Part shown: piece after piece, positions 39,230-54,278 of the stretch
Layout: every line of letters starts with the position of its first letter
Numbering within the stretch: the stretch's first letter is position 1
Assembly (NCBI RefSeq): GCF_003790525.1
Contig: NZ_CP033635.1
Origin: Escherichia coli
GTDB taxonomy: Bacteria > Pseudomonadota > Gammaproteobacteria > Enterobacterales > Enterobacteriaceae
DNA: 64,000 nt
Direction: 5' to 3' (one strand)
Position numbers and translations under genes: made by a program
The notes under the pieces: model-generated
Seen by the model: only the letters and a program-made list of their open reading frames with translations
Told to the model about the DNA's origin: nothing
Database searches by the model: none

Positions 39230-40123
39230 ATGTACTACTCAAAGTTTCTTGAGAAACACAAATCCCCCCTCAGCCACGCACAATGGTTGCGCTTGCGCTA
39301 TATTGAGCGCCAGCTACTGTGGGAACGAAAGGTCACTTCGCGCATGATTGCTGAAGAGTTTGGCGTCTCGGCGCAACAAGCTCGTACTGATGTAAGAACC
39401 TATATGGAGGTCGCTCCAGGCAATGCTATTGAGAAGGGGGCCGGCCGAAAAGGGTATTTCCCCAGTACGACGTTTACGCCTGTTTTGCTGGGAGACAACG
39501 ATCTGGTCTGGCGTACGACGGTAGAATTTCAACCGCCGCAAGCGGCCCACGCGCAGGAAATCCCGCTCATCCATCGCGCAGTGCATAGCCGCACGCTGGC
39601 AATTTTTTTGTCAGCAATCGAACAGAAAGGACAAGTAAAAGTGACTTATGCGTCAATGGAAAACCCGGAAGGCATATCTCGTACACTAAGCCCTACGGTA
39701 ATTATCACCGTTAACGGGCGTCAGCATGTGCGAGCCTATGACTGGGGAAGTTCGGCGTTTAAGGACTTTGTTTTGGCGCGATTTCTGGACTTGCCGGAAC
39801 TGATTGTTCCTGCACCCGCCCCGCCACGCAAAGATACCGCGTGGGAGGTCATAATCCCCGTGCGTTTTATAGCCAATCCAACACTAAACAAAGCGCAACA
39901 AGAGGTAATTAAGCGGGACTATTTACTTGAACCCTCTGAATTCAACATTCGTGCACCAATGATTTTTTATTTATGCCCTGAAAACAATCTGCCTAAAACA
40001 GATGATGAATATGCACAAGCTACTGACGCCAGCAGCCACGGCCCCTTTATCTACCCTGTTCTAGCTGTGCACGCCCAAACAGGGGAGCCTATTCATAAGT
40101 ACCGCCATGCAGGTGAGAGATAG
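39230..40123 (+). CDS. Candidate HTH/WYL-domain transcriptional regulator, divergent from the Wadjet operon
   Basis: 297 aa ORF with an N-terminal HTH-like segment (SRMIAEEFGVSAQQARTDVRTY) and a central region resembling a WYL domain. Divergently transcribed from the jetA-like gene with a 175-bp shared intergenic region. Confidence 0.4.
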   Translation: MYYSKFLEKHKSPLSHAQWLRLRYIERQLLWERKVTSRMIAEEFGVSAQQARTDVRTYMEVAPGNAIEKGAGRKGYFPSTTFTPVLLGDNDLVWRTTVEFQPPQAAHAQEIPLIHRAVHSRTLAIFLSAIEQKGQVKVTYASMENPEGISRTLSPTVIITVNGRQHVRAYDWGSSAFKDFVLARFLDLPELIVPAPAPPRKDTAWEVIIPVRFIANPTLNKAQQEVIKRDYLLEPSEFNIRAPMIFYLCPENNLPKTDDEYAQATDASSHGPFIYPVLAVHAQTGEPIHKYRHAGER

Positions 40124-40269
40124 ACATTCTGTTTACTAATAATTTATAGCCATTCACTGTTCCTGCATCATAGATATGGTGCAGCAACATTAAACACCAG
40201 CCATCTAAAAATTATGATTTATTAATTTCTGATTCAGTTAAATTCCTCTGAAAATAGATCCGTTATAGT

Positions 40270-40530
40270 TCCATGCATCTTTTGAAATCCCGACCAAATA
40301 ATGGGGTCGGCAAACATCTATTTGAGACGTTGGTTCTCATCCTCAAGATCTTTGATTATTTTAATATCAGAAGATTCCATACCACCGTATCTGGACTTCC
40401 AGTTGTAGTAAGTGGCTCAGAGAAGCCTGCCTCCCGGCAGACATCTTTAACAGTTCGCCCGTATTCAAGCGATTTAATCACGGCGATAATCTGATGCTCA
40501 GTAAAAGGGGCTTTACGCATAGCGATCTCC
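40270..40530 (-). pseudogene. IS3-family transposase OrfA remnant (frameshifted and truncated)
   Basis: Minus-strand translation MRKAPFTEHQIIAVIKSLEYGRTVKDVCREAGFSE..., then a frame break, then ...DIKIIKDLEDENQRLK*. Only about 260 bp of the element remains. Confidence 0.5.
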
Positions 40531-40594
40531 TTCATTGGCAGATTGATTATGCCGGAGGATCTCTAAATGTTAATGGCACGATTATGCGGGATAT

Positions 40595-41500
40595 TTACAA
40601 TACCAGTCCAACCCTCAGCTTACTGCAATGCCCATCAAGAGGGATGGTCCACATTGACGTATCAAAATCGCTCTCTGACCAGCGAGCAAAACGCAGCTCA
40701 CTGGATCGAATAAAGATAAGCAGAGTGAGTTCTGTCGCCCAGCGGGTTAGCGGCCTGCCGGTATAGCTGTCTATTTTCTCAAGTAACTCAGGGATGCGCT
40801 TTAACTCCAGCGCCGGACGATGCTGTCGATTACTGGAAGCAACCGCCCCCGCCATCTCCTGCGCCGGATTGTAATGAATTAACCCGCTTTGCACTGCATA
40901 ACGCATGATGGCCGTGGTGCGCTGTTGAAGGCGGGAAGCCACTTCAAAACGTCCAGATTTCTCCACGGCTTTAATGGGAATTAACAGATCGCGGGTGCCC
41001 AGTTCAGCAATATTGCGAGCACCAATTGTTGGGAAGATATTGTCCTCCAGGCTCTTTTTTCCACGATTAGCATGATCTTCCGACCATTTTTGGTTTGTCA
41101 CGAGCCACTCTCTGGCAACCTTCTCGAAAGTAATAATCTCTTTCGCCTGCTCTTCTTTCACAGCACGTTTATGCTCACGAGGATCGATACCAGCAGCGAC
41201 CAGCTTTCTGGCCTCTTCCCTTTTCTTCCGCGCATCCGCCAGCGAAACATCCGGGTAAACGCCGAACGCCATCAAATGTTGTTTACCACCAAAACGGAAA
41301 CGAAATCACCAATACTTTGAACCGCCAGGTTTTACAAGTAAAGACATGCCGTCGCCGTCAACAAGTGAATACTCTTTCTCCTCTGACTTCACAGAACGAA
41401 CTTTAGTATCCGTTAGGGCAATAATGGTCTTCCTTCCATTGGTATCTCGTGAGTATACAAGCAATATCGAATCGGCAAATATACTCATAAGTATACTCAC
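40595..41500 (-). pseudogene. P4-type tyrosine integrase, decayed (frameshifted, catalytic C-terminus missing)
   Basis: Two ORF fragments: 41306-41500 (...LTDTKVRSVKSEEKEYSLVDGDGMSLLVKPGGSKYW) and 40595-41275 (...GVYPDVSLADARKKREEARKLVAAGIDP...RFARWSE...). Both resemble the N-terminal two-thirds of the intact integrase at 51562-52815. Confidence 0.6.
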
Positions 41501-41622
41501 AAGCCTGTTGATGTGGGTTGAGTCAGGTTGACTTCAGTTGAGAAGAAAAGCTGGAAAAGCCTTGCGTGGCGCGGATTTCAGGCATAAAAAAAGACCTCAG
41601 TTGAGGTCTATTTACATACTTT

Positions 41623-41645
41623 TGGTGCGAAGGCCGGACTCAAAC
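41623..41645. repeat. Degenerate copy of the leuX 3' end (att remnant / tandem-island junction)
   Basis: tggtgcgaaggccggactcaaac matches the leuX 3' end tggtgccgaaggccggactcgaac at 52979-53002 except for one deletion and one substitution. Confidence 0.6.
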
Positions 41646-41847
41646 ATCAAAATAAGTTAATGATAAAAAACAAATAATAAAACACAACAATGAAATATGC
41701 CCCCTTTTGTGCCCCCACTGTTTTTCTGACCAATCTATTTTCAGCCCATCAATAAATCGGAAAGTTAAATCATTTTTAATCAGTAAGTTTGGATCCGTAG
41801 CTCGGCTCCAAACCAGTGCATCTTTTATCCACATAAAAAATTTTTTT

Positions 41848-42135
41848 TCGAAAGAACTGTTCACACTGTTCACCTTTCTGTTTTCTCCTTTTATTTCATA
41901 GTGATAGGTGGTGAATAATGGGTGAAGGGTGAACATTCGATTCTTCACCTCCGGCATTCTGCCGGTGTGACTTGTGCAGGGGATTAATTTCCCGTGCTGA
42001 AATCACACCGGAAGAAAAAAGTTTTTTTTGATTTGATTGTTCACACTGTTCACCTTTCGTTTTTCTCTTTTAATTTCAGTGTGATAACGGGTGAATATAC
42101 GGTGAAGGGTGAACAGTGGATTGTTCACCTTCGGG
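41848..42135. repeat. P4 crr-like cis-replication region: two roughly 110-bp direct repeats carrying TGTTCACC iterons
   Basis: Near-identical units at about 41848-41950 and 42020-42135 separated by about 70 bp. Each contains TGTTCAC(A/C)CTGTTCACC and inverted GGTGAA copies. Confidence 0.6.
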
Positions 42136-42146
42136 GAATTCAGGGA

Positions 42147-42172
42147 TAAAAAAAGACCGGCAGATGCCGGTC
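42147..42172 (-). terminator. Intrinsic terminator downstream of the alpha gene
   Basis: GACCGGCA..TGCCGGTC hairpin followed on the minus strand by a T7 run, a few nt after the alpha stop. Confidence 0.55.
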
Positions 42173-42179
42173 AGGTGGG

Positions 42180-44513
42180 TCAGGCTGTTGCAGGGTCGTC
42201 ACATTTTGGCAGCCAGTCGCCGTAGCTTTCCTCTTTCAGCGTCAGGTTGGTCTGTATCCCCTGTTTGGTATGGCGCTTCTCGTAATTCAGTCCGTATTCC
42301 TTCAGCATCACCGGCAGCCCCAGCCCGAACATTTTCAGACTGAGTACATTCCGGTAGCCGTTTGCCTCCATGTAGGCCAGATAGGCGTGATAGAGGTATT
42401 TACGGTAATTGCGCGGGATGATACTGGCGTTCCCCATATACATGCCGCTGGTCTGCGGCAGGGTTTCCAGATAGCCGATAAAATCAAACGTCGGGTCGGC
42501 ATCCCGTTTGATGTTCAGTGCCTCGTCTGAGTTCTGCTGGGACTGAAGCAGTGACCGGGCGAGCATCGGGTCGCTGAACTTCTGCATCAGGTGACGCACG
42601 ATGACCGCCAGCTCGCGGGTGATTTTGTCCTTAAGCTGCGGGTCGCGCTCCTGCGGGGCTATCTGTTCCGGGAAGTGAATAATCACCCGCCGGCGTGACA
42701 CGCCGCCGCTGCGGTCGGTGAAGCGCATCGGGTTATTGTTCACGGCCAGAATTACCGCCGGGATATGCGTGGAGTATGCATCCCGGTATTTCGGGTCAAC
42801 GGACACCGCATCGCCGCCGGTGATGGCCTTGAGTCCGGCACCGTCGCCGCTCCATTTTTCCTGGTCCGGCAGGCGTATCAGTGAGAAGCCAGTTAACGCG
42901 GCACGTTCACGCGGGGATTCCAGCGTCTCGATGGTGGCCGACGTGGCGTTATCCTCCCCGGCCAGCAGGGTGGCTATTTCGGCCATGATACTTTTGCCGC
43001 TGCCGCCGGGACCGGTCACCTCCAGAAAGAGCTGCCAGTCGTAGCGGTTTGCCAGCACCATAAACAGTGCGGCCAGAATCACGTCGCGTTTTTCCGCACG
43101 GCCACCGGCGGCACGGTCAAGCCAGCACCAGAACGCGGGGGCGTGGGTCTCCAGCGTTTCACCGTCCACCGGCGGGGTGAAATCCACATCGCACAGGGTG
43201 CGCATCCAGTGTGACGGACTGTGCGGGTGGAACGTGCCGTTCTGCGTGTCGAGCACGCCGTTACGAAAGCCAATCAGGCGGCGGGAGGGGGCTTCCTGCT
43301 GCGGAATAATCAGCTTCAGGGTGTCCACCACGGAGGCCACCTTCCCGGAGGAGAACGGCGCGCGCAGACGCTGAAACAGCCCGGCCACATCCCGGGCAAA
43401 GTCCTGTGGTGGCAGCACCTTCCAGACACCATTTTCATAACGGGACAGAAGCTGGCCGTTGGCATCGACCGCGAGCGCCTCGCCGTAATGCTCATAGATA
43501 CGCATGGCCTTTTCGCTGGTACTCATGGCGGAAAACTCCGCTTCACTCATGGTGTCGAACGGGCTTTCAGCCGGTGGCCGGATGGCATCGTAAATGGCCT
43601 TACGGGTGGCCTCCCCGCCGTACTGCGTGAAGGCATCATTCCAGTCACCGAAGACCGGTGGCAGGGCAACAACACCTTCACACGCATCTGCGGCTGCGGC
43701 GGCTTTTTTCTGGCCATCACCGCTGAGGTCACGGTCAGCGGCAAGGACAATCTGACAGGCGGGGTGCTTCTGCCGGGCAAGGCTGGCCAGAGAAAGGAGG
43801 TTCACGGAAGAAAGCGCCACCATCACCGTTTCACCGGTCAGGTGATGCACGGTAAGTGCGGTCGCGTATCCCTCCGCTATCCACAGACGTTTTCCGGCCT
43901 GATTCTGTCCTTCAAGGATGTGACAGGTGCCCCTGACCTGTCCGCCTTTCAGGGTGCGCTTACGGCCGTCAGCACTGATTAACTGAAGGTTAACCAGTTC
44001 GCCGCTGTCGTCATACAGTGGCACCACAAGGTCACCGGCGCGCCAGCTCACGCCACCGGCTCTGTGTGTGCCGGTCAGCATCCGGCATTCCCGGCCGGGA
44101 AAGCCCTTGCGGGTCAGGTAGGCGTTACCGGTTCCGGGACGGGTTTTCGCCATCAGGGTTTGTGCCAGTGCGGCGGCGTTCTTCCGGGCAGCGTCTGTTT
44201 CAGCACCGGCGGCAGCCGTCACTGCCGGGTCAGCCGGGGGCAGGCTGCCGGTCACGGCAGCCACCTTTGTGGCCGCGTCGGACGGGGAGACACCAAACAC
44301 CTTTTCAACCAGTTTCAGGCCGTCACCGGCACCACACTGATTGCAGTACCAGGTGCCGCGCCCCTCCCTGTCATCAAAACGGAAGCGGTCACTCCCGCCA
44401 CAGACCGGACAGGGCTGATGACGGTTCTTCAGCACCTGAATCCCCAGCGCCGGGAGAATACGCGGCCAGTGGCCGAGCGCATGGCTGACGGTGGCGGTTA
44501 CGTTCATTTTCAT
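42180..44513 (-). CDS. alpha: P4 alpha-like primase-helicase
   Basis: 777 aa ORF with an N-terminal zinc-binding primase motif (CPVCGGSDRF...YCNQCGAGDG), next to the TGTTCACC iteron clusters. Confidence 0.8.
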   Translation of the reverse strand: MKMNVTATVSHALGHWPRILPALGIQVLKNRHQPCPVCGGSDRFRFDDREGRGTWYCNQCGAGDGLKLVEKVFGVSPSDAATKVAAVTGSLPPADPAVTAAAGAETDAARKNAAALAQTLMAKTRPGTGNAYLTRKGFPGRECRMLTGTHRAGGVSWRAGDLVVPLYDDSGELVNLQLISADGRKRTLKGGQVRGTCHILEGQNQAGKRLWIAEGYATALTVHHLTGETVMVALSSVNLLSLASLARQKHPACQIVLAADRDLSGDGQKKAAAAADACEGVVALPPVFGDWNDAFTQYGGEATRKAIYDAIRPPAESPFDTMSEAEFSAMSTSEKAMRIYEHYGEALAVDANGQLLSRYENGVWKVLPPQDFARDVAGLFQRLRAPFSSGKVASVVDTLKLIIPQQEAPSRRLIGFRNGVLDTQNGTFHPHSPSHWMRTLCDVDFTPPVDGETLETHAPAFWCWLDRAAGGRAEKRDVILAALFMVLANRYDWQLFLEVTGPGGSGKSIMAEIATLLAGEDNATSATIETLESPRERAALTGFSLIRLPDQEKWSGDGAGLKAITGGDAVSVDPKYRDAYSTHIPAVILAVNNNPMRFTDRSGGVSRRRVIIHFPEQIAPQERDPQLKDKITRELAVIVRHLMQKFSDPMLARSLLQSQQNSDEALNIKRDADPTFDFIGYLETLPQTSGMYMGNASIIPRNYRKYLYHAYLAYMEANGYRNVLSLKMFGLGLPVMLKEYGLNYEKRHTKQGIQTNLTLKEESYGDWLPKCDDPATA

Positions 44514-44527
44514 GGTGTTGTTCTCCT

Positions 44528-44848
44528 TCAGTGCAGTACCGGCGCTTTTATGTGACGGGCACAGAGTTCATCCATCACAACCAGCCCGAGAAAGGACAGC
44601 GACGGCGCGGCCTTCAGGGGGCCGGATTCCATTAAATCTTCCAGCAGGGCACAGGCTATCTGACGCCCTTTTTCCTCACCGTGCTGGCGCAGATAAAAGC
44701 CTTCCAGCTCAGCGGCGATGGCCGCCTCCAGTGACTCAAGGGTGAGATGCGGGTAGCGGTGCTGACGTTCGCACACGGTCAGCCAGGCACAGGCGACAGC
44801 GCGACGGTAAAGGGCAGCGCGTAAGACGGGCGGTAAGGGTGTTTTCAT
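44528..44848 (-). CDS. Small P4-type protein (orf106/Cnr-like), function uncertain
   Basis: 106 aa ORF immediately upstream of alpha in the same operon. Confidence 0.45.
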
Positions 44849-44983
44849 TTGTTTTCCTCCCTGTGACAGATGACTGCATTCCGTGCCGGTTGCATTAACT
44901 GATAAGGCATATCTGCGTCTCCTGAAGACGTGCGTATCCCTGCGCGAATACGCACATTTAATTTTTCGGGTGTCGTTTTTTAA

Positions 44984-45439
44984 TTACAGATAATTGCGGT
45001 AACTGTTATCCGGGGTGATTTCCGGGTCAGGCTCCGTGCGGGGAATTTCCCGCCATTCCCGCGCCACCGGTGCCGCCCGGCTGACCGGAACAGTGTCCTG
45101 CGGGTAAATATCCAGATATTTCTCCCGCCATTTCTGTAATTCCGGGTCTCCGGCCATTTCTTTCAGTACCGCATGCCGGTTTACGGGGCTGCGTTTGAAC
45201 AGGTCAGGACGGTCACAGGTAAATTCCCGCAGAAAACGCCCCAGCGGGATGTCTGTGGTGCGCCCGTCGGCGAGGATACGCACAAGGATACTGAATTTAC
45301 GGCGGTACGGGTTCCAGACAATGTCCGGGCAGCGGTACGGCATTTCCCACGGAATACCGTCTTCCAGAATGCCGACCACGGCCACATCGGGAAAACCGGC
45401 AGAACGGTAAATCTCACCGGGCTGGGGAAAATCAAACAT
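44984..45439 (-). CDS. P4 orf151-like protein
   Basis: 151 aa ORF in the epsilon-alpha operon position. Confidence 0.45.
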   Translation of the reverse strand: MFDFPQPGEIYRSAGFPDVAVVGILEDGIPWEMPYRCPDIVWNPYRRKFSILVRILADGRTTDIPLGRFLREFTCDRPDLFKRSPVNRHAVLKEMAGDPELQKWREKYLDIYPQDTVPVSRAAPVAREWREIPRTEPDPEITPDNSYRNYL

Positions 45440-45719
45440 GCGTCCTGTCTCCCCGGTCTTTCTGCTGGGCGAGAAAATCGCGGCACAGGCCTTTGGCTTT
45501 CAGCTCATTCAGCACAAAATCAATATCTTCATTCAGGTAGCTGAAAATATGCGGAATGTAGAGCTGATGCAGGCCGGAGAGTTCACGGTGAATCAAATCA
45601 CCCCCAACAAACTGGGATACGGCGCTGGCGCGGTTGAGCTTATGGTAAGCCTCAATGCTGAGGTGTTCACGGGCGTCATGACGCGCTGAGACGGTCTGAG
45701 GGGCTTTTTTATTACGCAC
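45432..45719 (-). CDS. P4 epsilon-like small protein (putative GTG start)
   Basis: 95-codon frame beginning at a GTG at 45719..45717 ([20 protein letters not shown]...). The longer track ORF 45432-45959 has an implausible N-terminal extension. Confidence 0.35.
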
Positions 45720-46298
45720 GGGACACCTCCACCACCGGCAGACGGGCAGCAAGGGAGAGCACATAGTCACGGACAAGGGAACGGCGGGCGCTGCGTTCAT
45801 CACCGGCGACGGTGCGAAGCATGCAGATACGGGGATGACGGTCTGCGCGACGGACAGCCGCAAACACAAAGACAAATTCAGGGTGTGAGGGGGTAAGGGT
45901 TGTAGCCATAAGGCAGCCTCCTTCGAGTAGCAAATAACTGCTATCGCCGGAGTTCTCACGCTCGATGGCGATAGCCCAGACGGGGGTGAGAATACCGGCC
46001 TCGAAGAATACCGGCCAGCCCGGAGGCTGCCCCGCCTGAGCTACCATTGACTCAGTGGCATAACATGCGATTGCGAACAGGATAATACCTGCACGGCAAA
46101 CCACACGCCACACCATAATCTGGCGCTCTGTGGCGTTGATTGCGACACAAAAAAAGACGCATGGCGCGTCATATGTCGCCTTCGAGTTACACGGGTTCTC
46201 ACGCCCGGCTGCCGATTTTGCGGCAACGGAAAGACTATATCCGCAAATGCCGGAAAAAGGCAAGCCAGAAAAAGGGAGTTTTTGCAGAGCGGGCATCA

Positions 46299-46565
46299 TC
46301 ATGCGTCATACCCCCGTTTGCGTCCGGCAATGCGGCCGGCCATCCATGCGGTGACTTCAGAGTGCAGCCAGGCCACATTTTTACCGCCAAGACTCACCTG
46401 CGGCGGAAATTCCCCCTTACGGATGAGTTCGTAGATGGTCGAGCGTGACAGGCCGCACAGGTGCATCACTTCCGGAAGACGCAAAAAACGCTCCTGTGTG
46501 ATGTCCGGCTGCGGCATCAGTGGCGTCACAGGGGCGGGAGACGGGGAAGAAAAAACAGCTTGCAT
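46299..46565 (-). CDS. vis: Vis/AlpA-family small DNA-binding regulator
   Basis: 88 aa ORF with an AlpA-type HTH ([26 protein letters not shown]), at the head of the leftward operon. Confidence 0.6.
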
Positions 46566-46844
46566 CGGGCTACCTCGTTAATGTCCATACAGCACCGGAT
46601 AAGTCTGTCCGGCTTCGGGTAGCGCTTTATTTTGTGAATATTTTCAGCAGACGCAACAGGGGGGATTTGTTCCGGCAGCCTTACAATGCTTGTGTGTTTT
46701 TTGTTCATCTCCACTTAAAGTCATTTAAAGCCACTTAAAGCAATTCGTAATTTTTATAGTGAAATACAAATCGTTTTTTCTTATTCATTCCCGGCGAATT
46801 AATAAAAACAAACAGTAGTAAACAGCACAAAAAGCCCATCAACG

Positions 46845-46948
46845 GGTGAACAGTGGTGAACAGACGGTGAACAGTCATTACTGCGATTGTTCACCCTTTA
46901 ACTTACTGTATTACTTATCTTTTTTCTTATGGCGAACAGAGGTGAACA
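46845..46948. repeat. ori-like iteron cluster (GGTGAACAG repeats)
   Basis: Three tandem GGTGAACAG copies at 46845-46874 with 1-2 bp spacers, an inverted TGTTCACC at 46888-46895, and further copies at 46932-46948. Confidence 0.5.
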
Positions 46949-47117
46949 GTAAAATATAAAAAAACAAACAGTAAGACGGTTTTTCCTGCGACCTTTTCCT
47001 GGCTTGCCGGTGTGAGGATGAGTCTCCTGTGTCAGGGCTGGCACATCTGCAATGCGTCGTGTTGTTGTCCGGTGTACGTCACAATTTTCTTAACCTGAAG
47101 TGACGAGGAGCCGGAAA

Positions 47118-47852
47118 ATGTCTGACAACACCATCCCTGAATATCTGCAACCCGCGCTGGCACAACTGGAAAAGGCCAGAGCCGCCCATCTTGAGAACGC
47201 CCGCCTGATGGATGAGACCGTCACGGCCATTGAACGGGCAGAGCAGGAAAAAAATGCGCTGGCGCAGGCCGACGGAAACGACGCTGACGACTGGCGCACG
47301 GCCTTTCGTGCAGCCGGTGGTGTCCTGAGCGACGAGCTGAAACAGCGCCACATTGAGCGCGTGGCACGCCGGGAGCTGGTACAGGAATATGACAATCTGG
47401 CCGTGGTGCTGAATTTTGAACGCGAACGCCTGAAAGGGGCGTGTGACAGCACGGCCACCGCCTACCGGAAGGCACATCATCACCTGCTGAGTCTGTATGC
47501 AGAGCATGAGCTGGAACACGCCCTGAATGAAACCTGTGAGGCGCTTGTCCGGGCAATGCATCTGAGCATTCTGGTACAGGAAAATCCGCTCGCCAACACC
47601 ACCGGGCATCAGGGCTACGTCGCACCCGATAAAGCTGTCATGCAGCAGGTGAAATCATCGCTGGAACAGAAAATAAAACAGATGCAAATCAGCCTCACCG
47701 GCGAGCCGGTTCTCCGGCTGACCGGACTGTCAGCGGCAACACTCCCGCACATGGATTATGAGGTGGCAGGCACACCGGCACAGCGCAAGGTGTGGCAGGA
47801 CAAAATAGACCAGCAGGGAGCAGTGCTTAAGGCCAGAGGACTGCTGTCATGA
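47118..47852 (+). CDS. sid: P4 Sid-like capsid size determination protein
   Basis: 244 aa from the internal ATG (MSDNTIPEYLQPALAQLEKARAAHLENARLMDE...). Stop overlaps the delta start (ATGA). Confidence 0.75.
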   Translation: MSDNTIPEYLQPALAQLEKARAAHLENARLMDETVTAIERAEQEKNALAQADGNDADDWRTAFRAAGGVLSDELKQRHIERVARRELVQEYDNLAVVLNFERERLKGACDSTATAYRKAHHHLLSLYAEHELEHALNETCEALVRAMHLSILVQENPLANTTGHQGYVAPDKAVMQQVKSSLEQKIKQMQISLTGEPVLRLTGLSAATLPHMDYEVAGTPAQRKVWQDKIDQQGAVLKARGLLS

Positions 47853-48349
47853 TTTACTGCCCGTCGTGTGGACATGTTGCTCACACCCGTCGCGCACATT
47901 TCATGGACGATGGCACCAAGATAATGATTGCACAGTGCCGGAATATTTATTGCTCTGCGACATTTGAAGCGAGTGAAAGCTTTTTCTCTGACAGTAAAGA
48001 TTCAGGAATGGAATACATTTCAGGCAAACAGAGATACCGCGATTCACTGACGTCAGCCTCCGGCAGTATGAAACGCCCGAAAAGAATGCTTGTTACCGGA
48101 TATTGTTGTCGGAGATGTAAAGGCCTTGCACTGTCAAGAACATCGCGGCGTCTGTCTCAGGAAGTCACCGAGCGTTTTTATGTGTGCACGGATCCGGGCT
48201 GTGGTCTGGTGTTTAAAACGCTTCAGACCATCAACCGCTTCATTGTCCGCCCGGTCACACCGGACGAACTGGCAGAAAGCCTGCATGAAAAACAGGAACT
48301 GCCGCCAGTACGGTTAAAAACACAATCATATTCGCTGCGTCTGGAATGA
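47849..48349 (+). CDS. delta: P4 Delta-like late-gene activator (tandem Ogr-type zinc fingers)
   Basis: 166 aa ORF with two zinc-finger modules (MIYCPSCGHVAH...CRNIYC and CCRRCKGLAL...CTDPGC). Confidence 0.8.
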   Translation: MIYCPSCGHVAHTRRAHFMDDGTKIMIAQCRNIYCSATFEASESFFSDSKDSGMEYISGKQRYRDSLTSASGSMKRPKRMLVTGYCCRRCKGLALSRTSRRLSQEVTERFYVCTDPGCGLVFKTLQTINRFIVRPVTPDELAESLHEKQELPPVRLKTQSYSLRLE

Positions 48350-48422
48350 GGGCTGCCGGTTAACACCGGCCGTCGCCGCACACCGTATTTTTATTCTTCA
48401 GCATGATGAGAAAGAGATAACG

Positions 48423-48995
48423 ATGGAAAGCACAGCCTTACAGCAGGCCTTTGACACCTGCCAGAATAACAAAGCAGCATGGCTGCAACGCAAAAATGAG
48501 CTGGCTGCGGCCGAACAGGAATATCTGCGGCTTCAGTCCGGGGAAGGCAGAAACGTCAGTCGCCTTGACGAATTACGCAATATTATCGAAGTCAGAAAAT
48601 GGCAGGTGAATCAGGCCGCCGGTCGTTATATTCGTTCGCATGAAGCCGTTCAGCACATCAGCATCCGCGACCGGCTGAATGATTTTATGCAGCAGCACGG
48701 CACAGCACTGGCGGCGGCACTGGCACCGGAGCTGATGGGCTACAGTGAGCTGACGGCCATTGCCCGAAACTGTGCCATACAGCGTGCCACAGATGCCCTG
48801 CGTGAAGCCCTTCTGTCCTGGCTTGCGAAGGGTGAAAAAATTAATTATTCCGCACAGGATAGCGACATTTTAACGACCATCGGATTCAGGCCTGACGTGG
48901 CTTCGGTGGATGACAGCCGTGAAAAATTCACCCCTGCGCAGAACATGATTTTTTCGCGTAAAAGTGCGCAACTGGCATCACGTCAGTCTGTGTAA
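48423..48995 (+). CDS. psu: P4 Psu-like polarity suppression protein
   Basis: 190 aa ORF, third gene of the sid-delta-psu late operon. Confidence 0.75.
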   Translation: MESTALQQAFDTCQNNKAAWLQRKNELAAAEQEYLRLQSGEGRNVSRLDELRNIIEVRKWQVNQAAGRYIRSHEAVQHISIRDRLNDFMQQHGTALAAALAPELMGYSELTAIARNCAIQRATDALREALLSWLAKGEKINYSAQDSDILTTIGFRPDVASVDDSREKFTPAQNMIFSRKSAQLASRQSV

Positions 48996-49368
48996 AATTC
49001 CCCGAAAATCCGCCCGTTTTTACTGAAAAAAGCCATGCATCGATAAGGTGCATGGCTTTGCATGCGTTTCCCTGCCTCATTTTCTGCAAACCGCGCCATT
49101 CCCGGCGCGGTCTGAGCGTGTCAGTGAAACTGCATTAAAACCGCCCCGCAAAGCGGGCGGGCGAGGCGGGGAAAGCACTGCGCGCATGATATAAAAGAGT
49201 ATTAAGAATTTTACAGAAACAGCTAATACAGACGCTGAAGTAAAATCATTGAGACCATTCGTGATTTGATGCAAAAAATTGCACAACATAAGCTCCTATG
49301 GTTCATAGTAATACTATTAAACCTATCTTTTCGTTGGTATATTACCCATTTTGTAATGGAGAATTGAA

Positions 49369-51501
49369 ATGCTTTCTACTCAGGATATAAACGGTTTTTT
49401 TAATGCTGTTGACTCTCTCAAAAGGTTTAAACGAGCAGAAATAAGGGACAACAAAGATAAACCACTTATTGATTCACTTTACACAGATCTATTGCCAAAC
49501 AATCACGTCTTCAAAATGTGCTACGGGGAAAACACTACATTTTTAATTGGAAGAAAAGGCACAGGAAAATCCACAATAATTCTTAAACTTGAAAGTGAGT
49601 ACAGAAAAGAATCTTCATACCTCCCATGCTATATAGATACAAAAACAGTATTCGAAAGTGTTAGAGGTGAGTATCAAAAAATAGACTACCTAAAAGGGAA
49701 GATACCTGAAGAGCATCTAGAAAAATATTTAGTCGAGCGTGCATTCATTAAAAACATCTTGAAATCAATCGGTGACGAATTGAATATTCGAGCAGAAAGC
49801 ATATTCTCAAAACTAGCAGGGATTGTTAATGCAAGCAAAAAACAAGCGGTAAAAGCAAAAATAACAAAACTACTTTTAATGGTGGACAATAACCAAATAA
49901 TAAAAGAAATTGAAATACCCGTAATAACAGAAGTAAATACTAAACTTACTAAGGCGAACGAATCAGAAAATGGAACTACCCAAAACTATAACTCTGAGCT
50001 AACTGTAAAAATCGGAACATCACAACATGAAGGTGGTGGAAAAATAGGAGCGGTAAAAGGAATCACCTCAAGACAGAAAAACAATGACGCTTGGGAAAAG
50101 AGTTTCTCTACAGCCCTTCTAAAGGTTTTTCAAATCACATCAGTAATTGAAGAAATTAAAATCATATTAAGAGAGCTAGGAGTAAAAAAGCTTGTAATAT
50201 TTTTAGACGATTTCTCTGAAGTTGAAGAGAAGACGCTAAAAAACTTCGTCGATGTTGTACTTGCTCCGCTAAATAACTGGGCTAATGATTTCATTTGTTT
50301 TAAAGTCGCTGCCTACCCAAGTCGCATATATTATGGCGACATTGATGTTGGCAAAATAGATGTGGTAAATTTAGATTTTTATAATTTATATTCTAATTAT
50401 GATAAATCTACGATGGAATCCTTATCAGCTGACTTCACCAAGAGACTTTTAAATCAAAGGCTTAATCAGTTTTGCACATTGAAGTTTGAAGATTATTTTG
50501 ATACATCTTCAGCTACTCCAGAAGAGTACTATGATCTTATATTTAAAGTATCCATGAATGTCCCTAGAATTATAGGATACATTCTTTATTACTGCCATCA
50601 AACCAATGTATCTCTTGGCAGAAAAATAAATAAAGGCTCAATCGAGAAAGCAGCTCAGACTTATTATGAGCAAGTTGTATCTAAGTTTTTCGATATTGCC
50701 ACGCATAGTCTGATGTCTTTCAGTGAAAAAGTTTCTGAACTTCAGCAAAAAGAGATTCTAAATCTCTTCGTTCAGAAATTAAAAACGATTAAGCGACAAA
50801 TAATAACAAATGAACTAACTGGCACAATTTACAATAGAGACAGAACAAATCCTTATTGTAGTCATTTTTATTTTCAACCTAATCTTGAACATTTTCTGCG
50901 TACATTGGAGCTTAATTTCTTCATTACCAAATATAATGAATTAGTAAATAAAGACGGAAACAAGGTCTCGATATATGGAATAAATTATGGATTAGCTCGA
51001 AGTGAAAACCTCAAATGGGGAAAACCTGAAGGTAATCAGTTCCGTAGTTATTTCGTAGAAAGACCATTTGATTTCAACAAAGATATCGAAGATTTCTTAA
51101 GAGAATCGAAAAAAATCGTATGTCTTAATAGCTCTTGTGATAAAACCTATCCATATGAAGAACTTGCATTTCTTGAATATAATAAAATGAGATGTATTGA
51201 ATGCCAGTCGCCTGTTGAAGTAAGATCGTTTTCTGAAAGTATCAGTTCTGAAATATCTAAAATTGACAACGCTAAACTTTTACCAAAATTAGAATTAATG
51301 ATATTACATGAACTGAATAAGGCAGACGATCATCTCCTAGCTCGAGACATTGCTGAGGAACTAGACGCTTCATCACAATTAATTGCCAAACGGGCTGAAA
51401 AATTAGACAGAAAAGGTCTTGTTTTTAGAGATAAAAGTGATGCATTAATTAAGTATTCAATAACAAATAAAGCAGTAGAAGGTTATTTCTATGATGACTA
51501 A
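49369..51501 (+). CDS. Uncharacterised P-loop NTPase with C-terminal zinc ribbon and winged-helix-like domain; candidate anti-phage defence gene in the P4 psu-int hotspot
   Basis: 710 aa ORF, conspicuously AT-rich compared with flanking P4-like genes. Walker A LIGRKGTGKST, Walker B-like LVIFLDDFSEVEE, Cys4 cluster CLNSSCDKTYPYEELAFLEYNKMRCIECQSP, and a C-terminal wHTH-like segment. Confidence 0.6.
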   Translation: MLSTQDINGFFNAVDSLKRFKRAEIRDNKDKPLIDSLYTDLLPNNHVFKMCYGENTTFLIGRKGTGKSTIILKLESEYRKESSYLPCYIDTKTVFESVRGEYQKIDYLKGKIPEEHLEKYLVERAFIKNILKSIGDELNIRAESIFSKLAGIVNASKKQAVKAKITKLLLMVDNNQIIKEIEIPVITEVNTKLTKANESENGTTQNYNSELTVKIGTSQHEGGGKIGAVKGITSRQKNNDAWEKSFSTALLKVFQITSVIEEIKIILRELGVKKLVIFLDDFSEVEEKTLKNFVDVVLAPLNNWANDFICFKVAAYPSRIYYGDIDVGKIDVVNLDFYNLYSNYDKSTMESLSADFTKRLLNQRLNQFCTLKFEDYFDTSSATPEEYYDLIFKVSMNVPRIIGYILYYCHQTNVSLGRKINKGSIEKAAQTYYEQVVSKFFDIATHSLMSFSEKVSELQQKEILNLFVQKLKTIKRQIITNELTGTIYNRDRTNPYCSHFYFQPNLEHFLRTLELNFFITKYNELVNKDGNKVSIYGINYGLARSENLKWGKPEGNQFRSYFVERPFDFNKDIEDFLRESKKIVCLNSSCDKTYPYEELAFLEYNKMRCIECQSPVEVRSFSESISSEISKIDNAKLLPKLELMILHELNKADDHLLARDIAEELDASSQLIAKRAEKLDRKGLVFRDKSDALIKYSITNKAVEGYFYDD

Positions 51502-51561
51502 ATAGAAACTAACAATGAAAAGCTCAACGCTGATTCTAGGGCGTTGAGCTACTTAATAATT

Positions 51562-52815
51562 TTAGATCCTAGCAAAATCATAGGCCGTAATATTTTGATA
51601 TCGATTAATATCTAGATAGTCAGCCCACCATTGCATCATCAAACGACGCTCTTCTAAATGCTCTGAAGTATGAATATAAGCTGCGCGTACATTGTTACGT
51701 TCTGAATGGCTCAATTGACGTTCTATCGCATCATCACTCCATAGTCCCGATTCCCCCAACGCCCCGCGTGCCATAGTCCTAAAACCATGGCCACATACTT
51801 CTGTTTTTGTGTCATATCCCATTACACGCAATGCATTGTTTACCGTATTTTCACTCATAACCTTAGTTGCGTCATGATCGCCCGGGAAAAGAAAGTCTCT
51901 ATCACCACTAATCTGCTTAAGCTGTTCTAACAATATAATCGCCTGTCGGCTAAGCGGAACTATATGCTCCTCTTTCATTTTCATGCCACGATACGAGTAA
52001 CGTACGCCTTTAATTTCTTCTCGTTTAGCAGGAATACGCCAAGTAGCGTTATCAAAATCAAATTCTTTCCAACGAGCAAAACGTAATTCACTTGAACGAA
52101 CAAAAGTTAGTAAAGAAAGCTCAACCGCAATTTTCGTCATCATACGCCCACGATATACATCAAGACGTGCCAAGAACTCATGGAAACGATGTGATGGTAG
52201 CGCCGGGTAGTGCCGCGTTTTCGCCGTAGATAACGCACCGGCCATATCAATTGCAGGATTTGAGTCTACATAATCGTTCTGAACAGCATAGCGCATAATA
52301 GCAGTGACACGTTGCTGAAGACGCTGCGCTACATCATGCTTACCACTGGCATCAACTTTTTTTATCGGTGCCAAAAGGTGACTAGTTTTAAGCTGTCGAA
52401 TATCAGACGAGCCAATATAGGGAAAGATATAAAGCTCTAGATAGCGAAGAACCCGTGCCCGATGTTCCTCACTCCAACGCTTATTGCTGGCATGCCATTC
52501 ACGAGCAATAGTTTCAAAATTATAAGCACCAGCATTAACTGCTTGGGCCTCTTTCTGTACTGCTTTTGGATCTATACCTTGCACCAGCAACTTTTTGGCT
52601 TCATCCCTTCTAGCTCTAGCTTCAGCAAGCGTCACAGTCGGCCAAACACCAAAAGCAAGACGATCCTCTTTTTTGTCGGAAGGTCGTCTATATTTCATAC
52701 GCCAATATTTAGAGCCTTTGACAGAAACCTCGAGGTACAAACCGCCACCATCGGCCATTTTATAGGTTTTATCTTTTGGCTTTGCGGTCTCGACCTGTCT
52801 GGCGTTGAGCTTCAT
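51562..52815 (-). CDS. int: P4-type tyrosine integrase (IntB-like), intact
   Basis: MKLNARQVETAKPKDKTYKMADGGGLYLEV... with a complete C-terminal catalytic region (...HGFRTMARGAL..., ...HSERNNVRAAYIHT). Begins about 165 bp from the leuX 3' end, in the same orientation. Confidence 0.85.
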   Translation of the reverse strand: MKLNARQVETAKPKDKTYKMADGGGLYLEVSVKGSKYWRMKYRRPSDKKEDRLAFGVWPTVTLAEARARRDEAKKLLVQGIDPKAVQKEAQAVNAGAYNFETIAREWHASNKRWSEEHRARVLRYLELYIFPYIGSSDIRQLKTSHLLAPIKKVDASGKHDVAQRLQQRVTAIMRYAVQNDYVDSNPAIDMAGALSTAKTRHYPALPSHRFHEFLARLDVYRGRMMTKIAVELSLLTFVRSSELRFARWKEFDFDNATWRIPAKREEIKGVRYSYRGMKMKEEHIVPLSRQAIILLEQLKQISGDRDFLFPGDHDATKVMSENTVNNALRVMGYDTKTEVCGHGFRTMARGALGESGLWSDDAIERQLSHSERNNVRAAYIHTSEHLEERRLMMQWWADYLDINRYQNITAYDFARI

Positions 52816-52978
52816 TTGGGGGCACATCCCTAATCGAAGTTAAGATGCCCCCAATTATGCCCCCAATGACATCCGGATTTCAACGTACAACCTCGGACGA
52901 CTCGGGACGTTAAAATCACTGCAAGCATTGATTTTTAAGGAATTATTGGACTTTCTCGGATGGTCTAGGAAGTGCTTA

Positions 52979-53063
52979 TGGTGCCGAAGGCCGGACTCGA
53001 ACCGGCACGTATTTCTACGGTTGATTTTGAATCAACTGCGTCTACCGATTTCGCCACTTCGGC
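52979..53063 (-). tRNA. leuX: tRNA-Leu (anticodon CAA), leuX
   Basis: Reverse complement reads GCCGAAGTGGCGAAATCGGTAGACGCAGTTGATTCAAAATCAACCGTAGAAATACGTGCCGGTTCGAGTCCGGCCTTCGGCACCA, an 85-nt class II tRNA with CAA anticodon and encoded CCA. Confidence 0.9.
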
Positions 53064-53258
53064 ACTGAAGAGGTATGCGGAAAACGTTGTGGATTATACC
53101 TGTCGCACGCCACCATGCAAGCGCCAGCTTGCTCGCATCTCGCTAAGTGCTGAAATTTTCAGCATTACACTCAGCGATGTGTAACCTTTGTCACACTCCA
53201 GGCACCCCGCCCTGCCATGCTCTACACTTCCCAGACAACACCAGAGAAGGACCAAAAA

Positions 53259-54278
53259 ATGTCGATGATAAAAAGCTATGCCGCAAAAGAAGCGGGCGGC
53301 GAACTGGAACTTTATGAGTACGATCCCGGTGAATTGAAGCCACAAGATGTTGAAGTGCAGGTGGATTACTGCGGGATCTGCCATTCCGATCTGTCGATGA
53401 TCGACAACGAATGGGGATTTTCACAGTATCCGCTGGTTGCCGGGCATGAGGTGATTGGTCGCGTGGTGGCGCTCGGGAGTGCCGCACAGGATAAAGGTTT
53501 GCAGGTCGGTCAGCGTGTCGGGATTGGCTGGACGGCACGCAGCTGCGGGCATTGCGATGCCTGTATTAGCGGTAATCAGATCAACTGCGAGCAAGGTGCG
53601 GTGCCAACAATTATGAATCGCGGCGGTTTTGCCGAGAAGTTGCGTGCGGACTGGCAATGGGTGATTCCGCTGCCAGAAAATATCGATATCGAGTCCGCCG
53701 GGCCGCTGCTGTGTGGTGGTATCACGGTCTTTAAACCACTGTTGATGCACCATATCACTGCTACCAGCCGCGTTGGGGTAATTGGTATTGGCGGGCTGGG
53801 GCATATCGCTATAAAACTTCTGCACGCAATGGGATGCGAGGTGACAGCCTTTAGTTCTAATCCGGCGAAAGAGCAGGAAGTACTGGCGATGGGTGCCGAT
53901 AAAGTGGTGAATAGCCGCGATCCGCAGGCACTGAAAACTCTGGCGGGGCAGTTTGATCTCATTATCAATACTGTGAACGTCAGCCTCGACTGGCAGCCTT
54001 ATTTTGAGGCGCTGACGTATGGCGGTAATTTCCATACGGTCGGTGCGGTTCTCACGCCGCTGTCTGTTCCGGCCTTTACGTTAATTGCGGGCGACCGCAG
54101 CGTCTCTGGCTCTGCTACCGGCACGCCTTATGAGCTGCGTAAGCTGATGCGCTTTGCCGCCCGCAGCAAGGTTGCGCCAACTACCGAACTGTTCCCGATG
54201 TCGAAAATTAACGACGCCATCCAGCATGTGCGCGACGGTAAGGCGCGTTACCGCGTGGTTCTGAAAGCCGATTTTTGA
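53259..54278 (+). CDS. ahr: NADPH-dependent aldehyde reductase Ahr (YjgB), zinc-type alcohol dehydrogenase
   Basis: [45 protein letters not shown]... with zinc-ligand and GxGxxG motifs. Internal start preferred over the track start at 53217. Confidence 0.9.

Follow-up and report, generated by a model that had tools for sequence, protein, structure and literature searches.

The crr double repeat of a P4-type satellite prophage at tRNA-Leu(CAA) in Escherichia coli

Within a 64-kb stretch of an E. coli chromosome (the window, 64,000 nucleotides in full), we found a double direct repeat that is very probably (about 94%) the crr of an apparently complete P4-type satellite prophage at tRNA-Leu(CAA), acting as an alpha-binding, enhancer-like partner of ori. 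The repeat had been called crr-like in an earlier note; because the near-identical repeats lie within an entire P4-type prophage whose alpha gene is intact, the sequence argues that the element is crr itself, and nothing found here contradicts this identification. The discovery value is small, since crr was sequenced and named in the 1980s and the present copy is nearly identical.

A repeat search of the window returned two direct copies of 120 nt with 81% identity, whose starts lie 180 nt apart and leave a 60-bp spacer between crr units A and B. The two long direct units claimed by the earlier note are real, and the positions given for them (41848–41950 and 42020–42135) fall roughly inside the true units, but their length is 120 nt and not about 110, the gap is 60 bp instead of about 70, and the units, being 81% identical, are similar but not nearly identical as had been stated. 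The element comprises the following features.

41835–42134, plus strand: whole crr element, counterpart of the crr annotated in P4 (X51522 4291–4590, constant offset 37544)
41835–41954, plus strand: crr repeat A, 119/120 identical to P4 repeat 1, with a single difference at 41899
41835–41848: A6T8 tract of repeat A
41858–41865, plus strand: repeat A iteron 1, TGTTCACA
41867–41874, plus strand: repeat A iteron 2, TGTTCACC
41910–41917, minus strand: repeat A iteron 3, TATTCACC
41921–41928: additional degenerate iteron of repeat A, GGTGAAGG
41928–41935, minus strand: repeat A iteron 4, TGTTCACC
41942–41949, plus strand: repeat A iteron 5, TCTTCACC
41955–42014, no strand: inter-repeat spacer, with an imperfect palindrome inside
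42015–42134, plus strand: crr repeat B, 120/120 identical to P4 repeat 2
42015–42029: A6GT8 tract (A/T tract) of repeat B
42038–42045 and 42047–42054 (plus strand), 42090–42097 and 42108–42115 (minus strand), 42122–42129 (plus strand): repeat B iterons

Both units share one layout, in which an A6T8-type tract is followed by a tandem TGTTCACA-C-TGTTCACC on the plus strand, a 35-bp AT-rich stretch, GGTGAATA and GGTGAACA (the minus-strand iterons) and finally T(C/G)TTCACC on the plus strand. The five TGTTCACC matches per repeat, in the order + + − − +, coincide with the features annotated as 'ori type 1 repeat' in X51522. With 36–37% GC, the units are poorer in GC than the whole prophage (49%). 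In line with the octamers and inverted copies reported in the earlier note, the 64-kb window contains 12 exact copies of TGTTCACC where 1.7 would be expected, a roughly 7-fold enrichment (none of 100 shuffles reached 12), with five copies in the crr repeats, five at 46845–46948 and only two outside crr and ori. When one mismatch was allowed, ten TGTTCACC sites, five per unit, were found in the 300-bp element; the background of this search, about 47 sites per 64 kb, would put roughly 0.2 in a stretch of that length. Window-wide, one-mismatch variants numbered 102 (47 expected), 16 of them in crr and ori; outside these two sites as well, they were about twice as frequent as in shuffles, probably a codon-usage effect (e.g. 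GGT-GAA) that dinucleotide shuffles do not preserve. An Rfam scan of 40000–53500 gave no match in crr itself, and a promoter scan of 41400–42400 detected no sigma-70-like site. A CRISPR array resembles crr in having direct repeats around non-repeated sequence. It was ruled out here, as it had been by the earlier note, because there are two long units (120 nt each, 81% identical, internally repetitive) and no regular series of at least three short repeats (about 24–48 nt) and spacers; moreover, the ORF list of the window contains no cas genes near crr.

When 41700–42250 was compared with a phage collection by blastn, P4 records were the sole matches, with 96.4% identity over 551 nt lying directly under the annotated crr, which bears out the P4 crr-like reading of the earlier note. 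In the repeats, 239 of 240 bases are the same as in P4, and the offset of 37544 puts every annotated crr feature on its counterpart in the window; in a blastn comparison of P4 with the window, each P4 repeat also matched the non-cognate repeat (E = 1e-27 and 6e-26). Like the present element, P4 crr consists of two 120-bp direct repeats with a 60-bp spacer and five type I iterons each in the same order, and both are located between the att site (attP in P4, the att core at 41623–41641 in the window) and the alpha terminator (42155–42172). Apart from the substitution at 41899 in repeat A, the present crr differs from that of P4 by 14 spacer substitutions within 41965–42009, out of 20 differences from P4 in the whole of 41623–42250.

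The surroundings of the repeats are those of a complete P4-type satellite prophage that spans 41623–52998. Its first part (41623–48241) is collinear with P4 4078–10706 at 97.8% identity (blastn), and it stays collinear, with 98.7% identity, up to 49186, a stretch that takes in delta, psu and the cos junction. The P4 backbone is intact and collinear (alpha with 777 aa, ORF106, epsilon, C4 RNA, ori, sid, delta, psu, cos and int), and the following features were located.

41623–41641, no strand: att core copy at the crr-side end of the prophage, TGGTG-CGAAGGCCGGACTC, with a 1-nt deletion relative to P4 attP
42155–42172, minus strand: rho-independent terminator of the alpha operon (t-alpha), a 7-bp stem with six GC pairs followed by T7, 20 nt from the end of crr
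42180–44513, minus strand: alpha (primase, SF3 helicase and origin-binding protein), 769/777 (99%) identical to P4 alpha
44528–44848, minus strand: ORF106, counterpart of P4 ORF106, collinear with P4 6984–7304
45964–46051, minus strand: C4 immunity RNA (Rfam)
46150–46227, minus strand: isrK (Rfam)
46188–46240, minus strand: a1/b1 target of the P4 immunity RNA (Rfam)
46845–46948, no strand: ori iteron cluster, five exact TGTTCACC and one TGTTCGCC, annotated as rep_origin in P4
51562–52827, minus strand: P4-type integrase, adjoining tRNA-Leu, 83% nucleotide identity to P4 int
52979–52998: second att core copy (the core being about 20 nt), the 3' end of tRNA-Leu(CAA)
52979–53063, minus strand: tRNA-Leu(CAA)

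The presence of C4, the a1/b1 target and isrK is consistent with an intact immunity region. The crr-side att core is one C shorter than both P4 attP and the tRNA-side copy (TGGTG-CGAAGG versus TGGTGCCGAAGG), a deletion that might affect excision. This deletion, together with the integrated state of the element and the existence of decayed copies elsewhere, for example in E. coli MS 115-1, would fit a domesticated prophage that never replicates autonomously and whose crr is a crr by descent and an inert relic today; such a history is nevertheless very improbable, given that all P4 backbone parts are intact and collinear and that the iterons are unchanged from P4 and visibly constrained across the family (see below).

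Other genes and sequences in and around the prophage were also noted. In the psu–int hotspot, a 710-aa cargo gene (49369–51501) stands where P4 has gop-beta-cII and starts about 180 nt after P4 homology ends just past cos. Its product, named 'MarR family transcriptional regulator' in RefSeq, gave weak signals of an N-terminal P-loop NTPase, a weak Pfam match to a MarR-type winged helix at 641–688 and, in the PADLOC search, weak matches to CARF-type models with no confident family; the gene is a candidate uncharacterised anti-phage gene. The stretch 41573–54134 is 99.67% identical to the chromosome of E. coli Ec42, with crr being 100% identical. Just left of the prophage lies a type III Wadjet-like defence operon (32601–39054, minus strand), followed by a gene on the opposite strand:

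32601–36686, minus strand: JetC (PADLOC E = 0)
36689–37585, minus strand: 298-aa ORF between JetC and JetA, no PADLOC match
37588–39054, minus strand: JetA (PADLOC E = 0)
39230–40123, plus strand: WYL-domain protein

Directly outside the crr-side prophage end, the stretch 41570–41613 contains a second terminator-like hairpin (41592–41609, minus strand), and 41570–41596 is 89% identical over 27 nt to 42132–42158, the junction of repeat B and the alpha terminator. The sequence 41573–41622 is common to Ec42 and the DNA further left differs; 41570–41613 may be a scar left by a P4-type element that occupied this tRNA earlier. A 226-aa ORF at 40595–41275 shows weak nucleotide similarity to P4 int (40844–40933, 74%), and at the corresponding position, immediately left of the prophage, Ec42 carries a full integrase of 402 aa in DNA that does not align with the window. 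The 226-aa ORF looks like a truncated integrase, left by an older island that the P4-type insertion displaced.

The protein expected to act on the repeats is encoded next to them. The alpha gene, which is intact, ends 45 nt from crr, and residues 671–770 of its product are 100% identical to PDB 1KA8 (named 'putative P4-specific DNA primase' by its depositors), which we take to be the crystal structure of the origin-binding domain of P4 alpha. As both the DNA sites and the binding domain of alpha match the pair studied experimentally in P4, specific binding of alpha to the repeats would be expected. ORF106 is presumably cnr, a negative regulator acting through alpha. The ori cluster, with iterons at 46845, 46855 and 46866 (minus strand), 46888 (plus strand) and 46931 and 46941 (minus strand), is situated 4.7 kb from crr on the other side of the alpha operon, and three type-2 decamer repeats are found near it at 46711–46740. 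In P4, ori (ori1, the counterpart of 46845–46948 here) shares with crr the TGTTCACC iterons and AT-rich DNA between oppositely oriented iterons; it differs in that its six iterons are arranged differently, in having type-2 decamers and in being the site where replication starts, whereas crr is duplicated and distant. The likeness in design, with oppositely oriented iterons flanking a 35-bp AT-rich segment in units that are clearly less GC-rich than the prophage, could suggest that each unit is a small origin of its own at which replication starts. We consider this highly improbable, because the type-2 repeats of ori are absent from crr, and because replication mapping in P4 places initiation at ori, and crr by itself is not known to support replication.

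For the conservation of crr, 80 loci with an alpha homologue (one genome per species) and 35 additional E. coli-type loci from viral contigs were compared. An alignment of 13 double-unit crr sequences, the window and 12 elements with an adjacent double unit from other genera (Citrobacter, Enterobacter, Edwardsiella, Raoultella, Tenebrionibacter and Superficieibacter), contained 74% invariant columns in the iterons, 68% in the A/T tracts, 36% in the rest of the units and 3% in the spacer (Fisher p = 2e-8 for iterons versus rest of units and 4e-20 for iterons versus spacer). Among 38 distinct E. coli-type crr sequences, common polymorphisms were seen in three places only (left flank, AT-rich segment and spacer), and the iterons had none. 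These alignments indicate that the iterons are under purifying selection. The comparative footprint thus marks the iterons and A/T tracts as the constrained parts of crr and the spacer as the free part. The paired arrangement with ori also recurred: of the 80 loci with an alpha gene, 24 had an ori cluster upstream and a crr cluster downstream, both built of the same octamer, and among them were elements of Erwinia and Pantoea, in which alpha identity drops to about 59%. Elements differed in how many units they carried and where (one, two, or units split by 0.4–2.7 kb of cargo), always in direct orientation; as many related elements have one unit or cargo-split units, the double-repeat form is not obligatory.

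The same comparison bears on an ORF of 105 aa (41640–41957, minus strand) that overlaps repeat A and would make the region protein-coding. In Ec42, PGAP/RefSeq places a 74-aa 'integrase' CDS across the equivalent stretch, and the match in NC_001609 overlies a 'hypothetical protein'; against this, most of the genomes listed with a crr match have no annotated feature there, and conservation tracks the iterons and A/T tracts and no reading frame. Moreover, the left flank of repeat A is wholly different among E. coli elements with the same crr, so the ORF is not conserved; a coding region was ruled out on this ground and is barely credible.

Of 5426 complete E. coli genomes, 1125 (about one fifth) carried a crr homologue, which was always chromosomal. 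The element is unannotated in RefSeq; in most of the genomes listed, the place is either blank or spuriously assigned to an 'integrase' or a 'hypothetical protein'. Since crr marks the alpha-side end of P4-type satellites, it is useful for annotation. In 12 loci from other genera, cargo was located between alpha and crr or between the crr units, and the cargo near crr downstream of alpha included an AriA/OLD-like ATPase, BovA and PDC-S15, each in a different locus. That the interval from the primase to att is a minor hotspot of defence genes has already been noted in a text in which crr occurs 0 times (bioRxiv 10.64898/2026.02.27.708500). In the decayed element of E. coli MS 115-1 (NZ_CP146665.1 49173–49632), an IS3 cuts repeat A and alpha is reduced to a fragment of the winged-helix region.

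The spacer contains a palindrome with arms of 27 nt (41957–41983 and 41990–42016) that are 81% complementary and centred on TTAATT. The predicted fold has a dG of −19.5 kcal/mol (z −5.9), compared with −8.2 kcal/mol (z −1.65) for the P4 spacer. Among 43 E. coli-type sequences there were 25 spacer alleles built of alternative blocks, with folds from −7.6 to −19.5 kcal/mol, and the window allele, the one with the strongest fold, occurred in five of the 43. Some alleles keep the pairing, one of them in the outer stem, through changes in both arms (for example CCGGTGTGA/TCACACCGG here, CCTGTGTGA/TCACACAGG in strain 2013C_3678). Spacers at least 95% identical to that of the window were found in about 75 of 956 matching E. 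coli genomes, and about 728 of 945 carried a spacer of the P4 type, with an identity of 90% or more. In other genera, spacers delimited in the same way are shorter (46–59 bp) and unrelated to the window spacer; the 12 analysed fold no better than shuffles, weak cases aside (z +1.6 to −2.2). The palindrome was also considered as a conserved part of crr, which the comparison did not support, other genera having no palindrome and P4 only a weak one. A role of the spacer hairpin as a terminator was rejected: the terminator scan gave only t-alpha and the hairpin at 41592–41609, both on the minus strand and outside the spacer, and no T-run directly follows the palindrome on either strand. The spacer could instead form a functional cruciform, or a site for a dimeric protein, that tunes the activity or specificity of crr between competing satellites and evolves fast for that reason, a proposal that we regard as unlikely. 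Given that the P4 spacer is largely unpaired and that other genera are without the palindrome, it is more likely that the spacer is the least constrained part of crr, shaped by relaxed constraint and by recombination between alleles. A strong palindrome appears dispensable for crr function, since the reference P4 has none and replicates with a largely unpaired spacer.

Taken with the position of the repeats and the intact cognate alpha and ori, the most likely function of crr is that of a cis-acting alpha-binding site that would cooperate with ori to start P4 replication. Alpha reportedly binds type I iterons at both ori and crr through its C-terminal winged-helix domain and supplies helicase and primase, crr is said to be needed in cis for initiation at ori, and Cnr is said to restrain replication through alpha bound at these sites. 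For the present element, binding by alpha, looping, the need for crr in cis and the function of Cnr are inferred from the P4 literature and from the GenBank annotation of P4, which describes crr as required in cis for replication; two P4-engineering papers likewise describe it as a region required in cis for, and essential to, replication. By this model, each 120-bp unit would offer about five 8-bp type I iterons (TGTTCACC), two direct, then past the 35-bp AT-rich stretch two inverted and one direct, to which the C-terminal winged-helix domain of the element's own alpha would bind as it would to the iterons of ori. Once the satellite is derepressed and excised, alpha at crr and ori would bridge the two sites via DNA looping, and initiation at ori would follow, using the helicase and primase of alpha itself. 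crr would accordingly serve as a second alpha landing site and a cis-acting, enhancer-like partner of ori, and the small protein Cnr would hold replication back by making alpha more stable at both sites. As long as the prophage stays integrated and repressed, crr would be silent.

A different possibility is a mainly negative role, in which the site controls copy number or incompatibility by titrating alpha or handcuffing origins in the manner of P1 incA. This would agree with the presence of an initiator-binding iteron cluster outside the origin, which acts negatively in many iteron plasmids, with the neighbouring ORF106 (cnr), which is collinear with P4, and with the tolerance of related elements for one, two or three units, which could be expected of a dosage-type element. 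In P4, Cnr inhibits replication by raising the binding of alpha to ori and crr. Deletion of crr, however, abolishes P4 replication rather than raising copy number, and both the GenBank annotation and later users of P4 call crr required in cis, which is a positive role. A mainly negative element is therefore unlikely, although the two roles are compatible and a negative one may coexist with the role as partner of ori.

Apart from P4 itself, several systems invite comparison with crr as an enhancer-like partner of ori. In the plasmid loci P1 incA and F incC, and in R6K, where the alpha and beta origins depend on the iterons of the gamma origin, initiator-binding repeats lie kilobases from the site of initiation and make contact with it by looping, which likens them to crr. 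In R6K, pi mediates long-range activation of the alpha and beta origins by the gamma-origin iterons, a positive requirement in cis like that for crr; incA and incC, unlike crr, are dispensable negative controllers. The auxiliary iteron arrays of these plasmids have no sequence similarity to crr, and their Rep and pi initiators are winged-helix dimers unrelated to a primase-helicase with a C-terminal winged helix. Another counterpart is crtS of Vibrio cholerae, which like crr is a non-origin site that is bound by the initiator (RctB) and boosts the firing of a distant origin. In contrast to crr, crtS is located on another chromosome, works by being replicated, is not made up of origin-type iterons and has no cis requirement.
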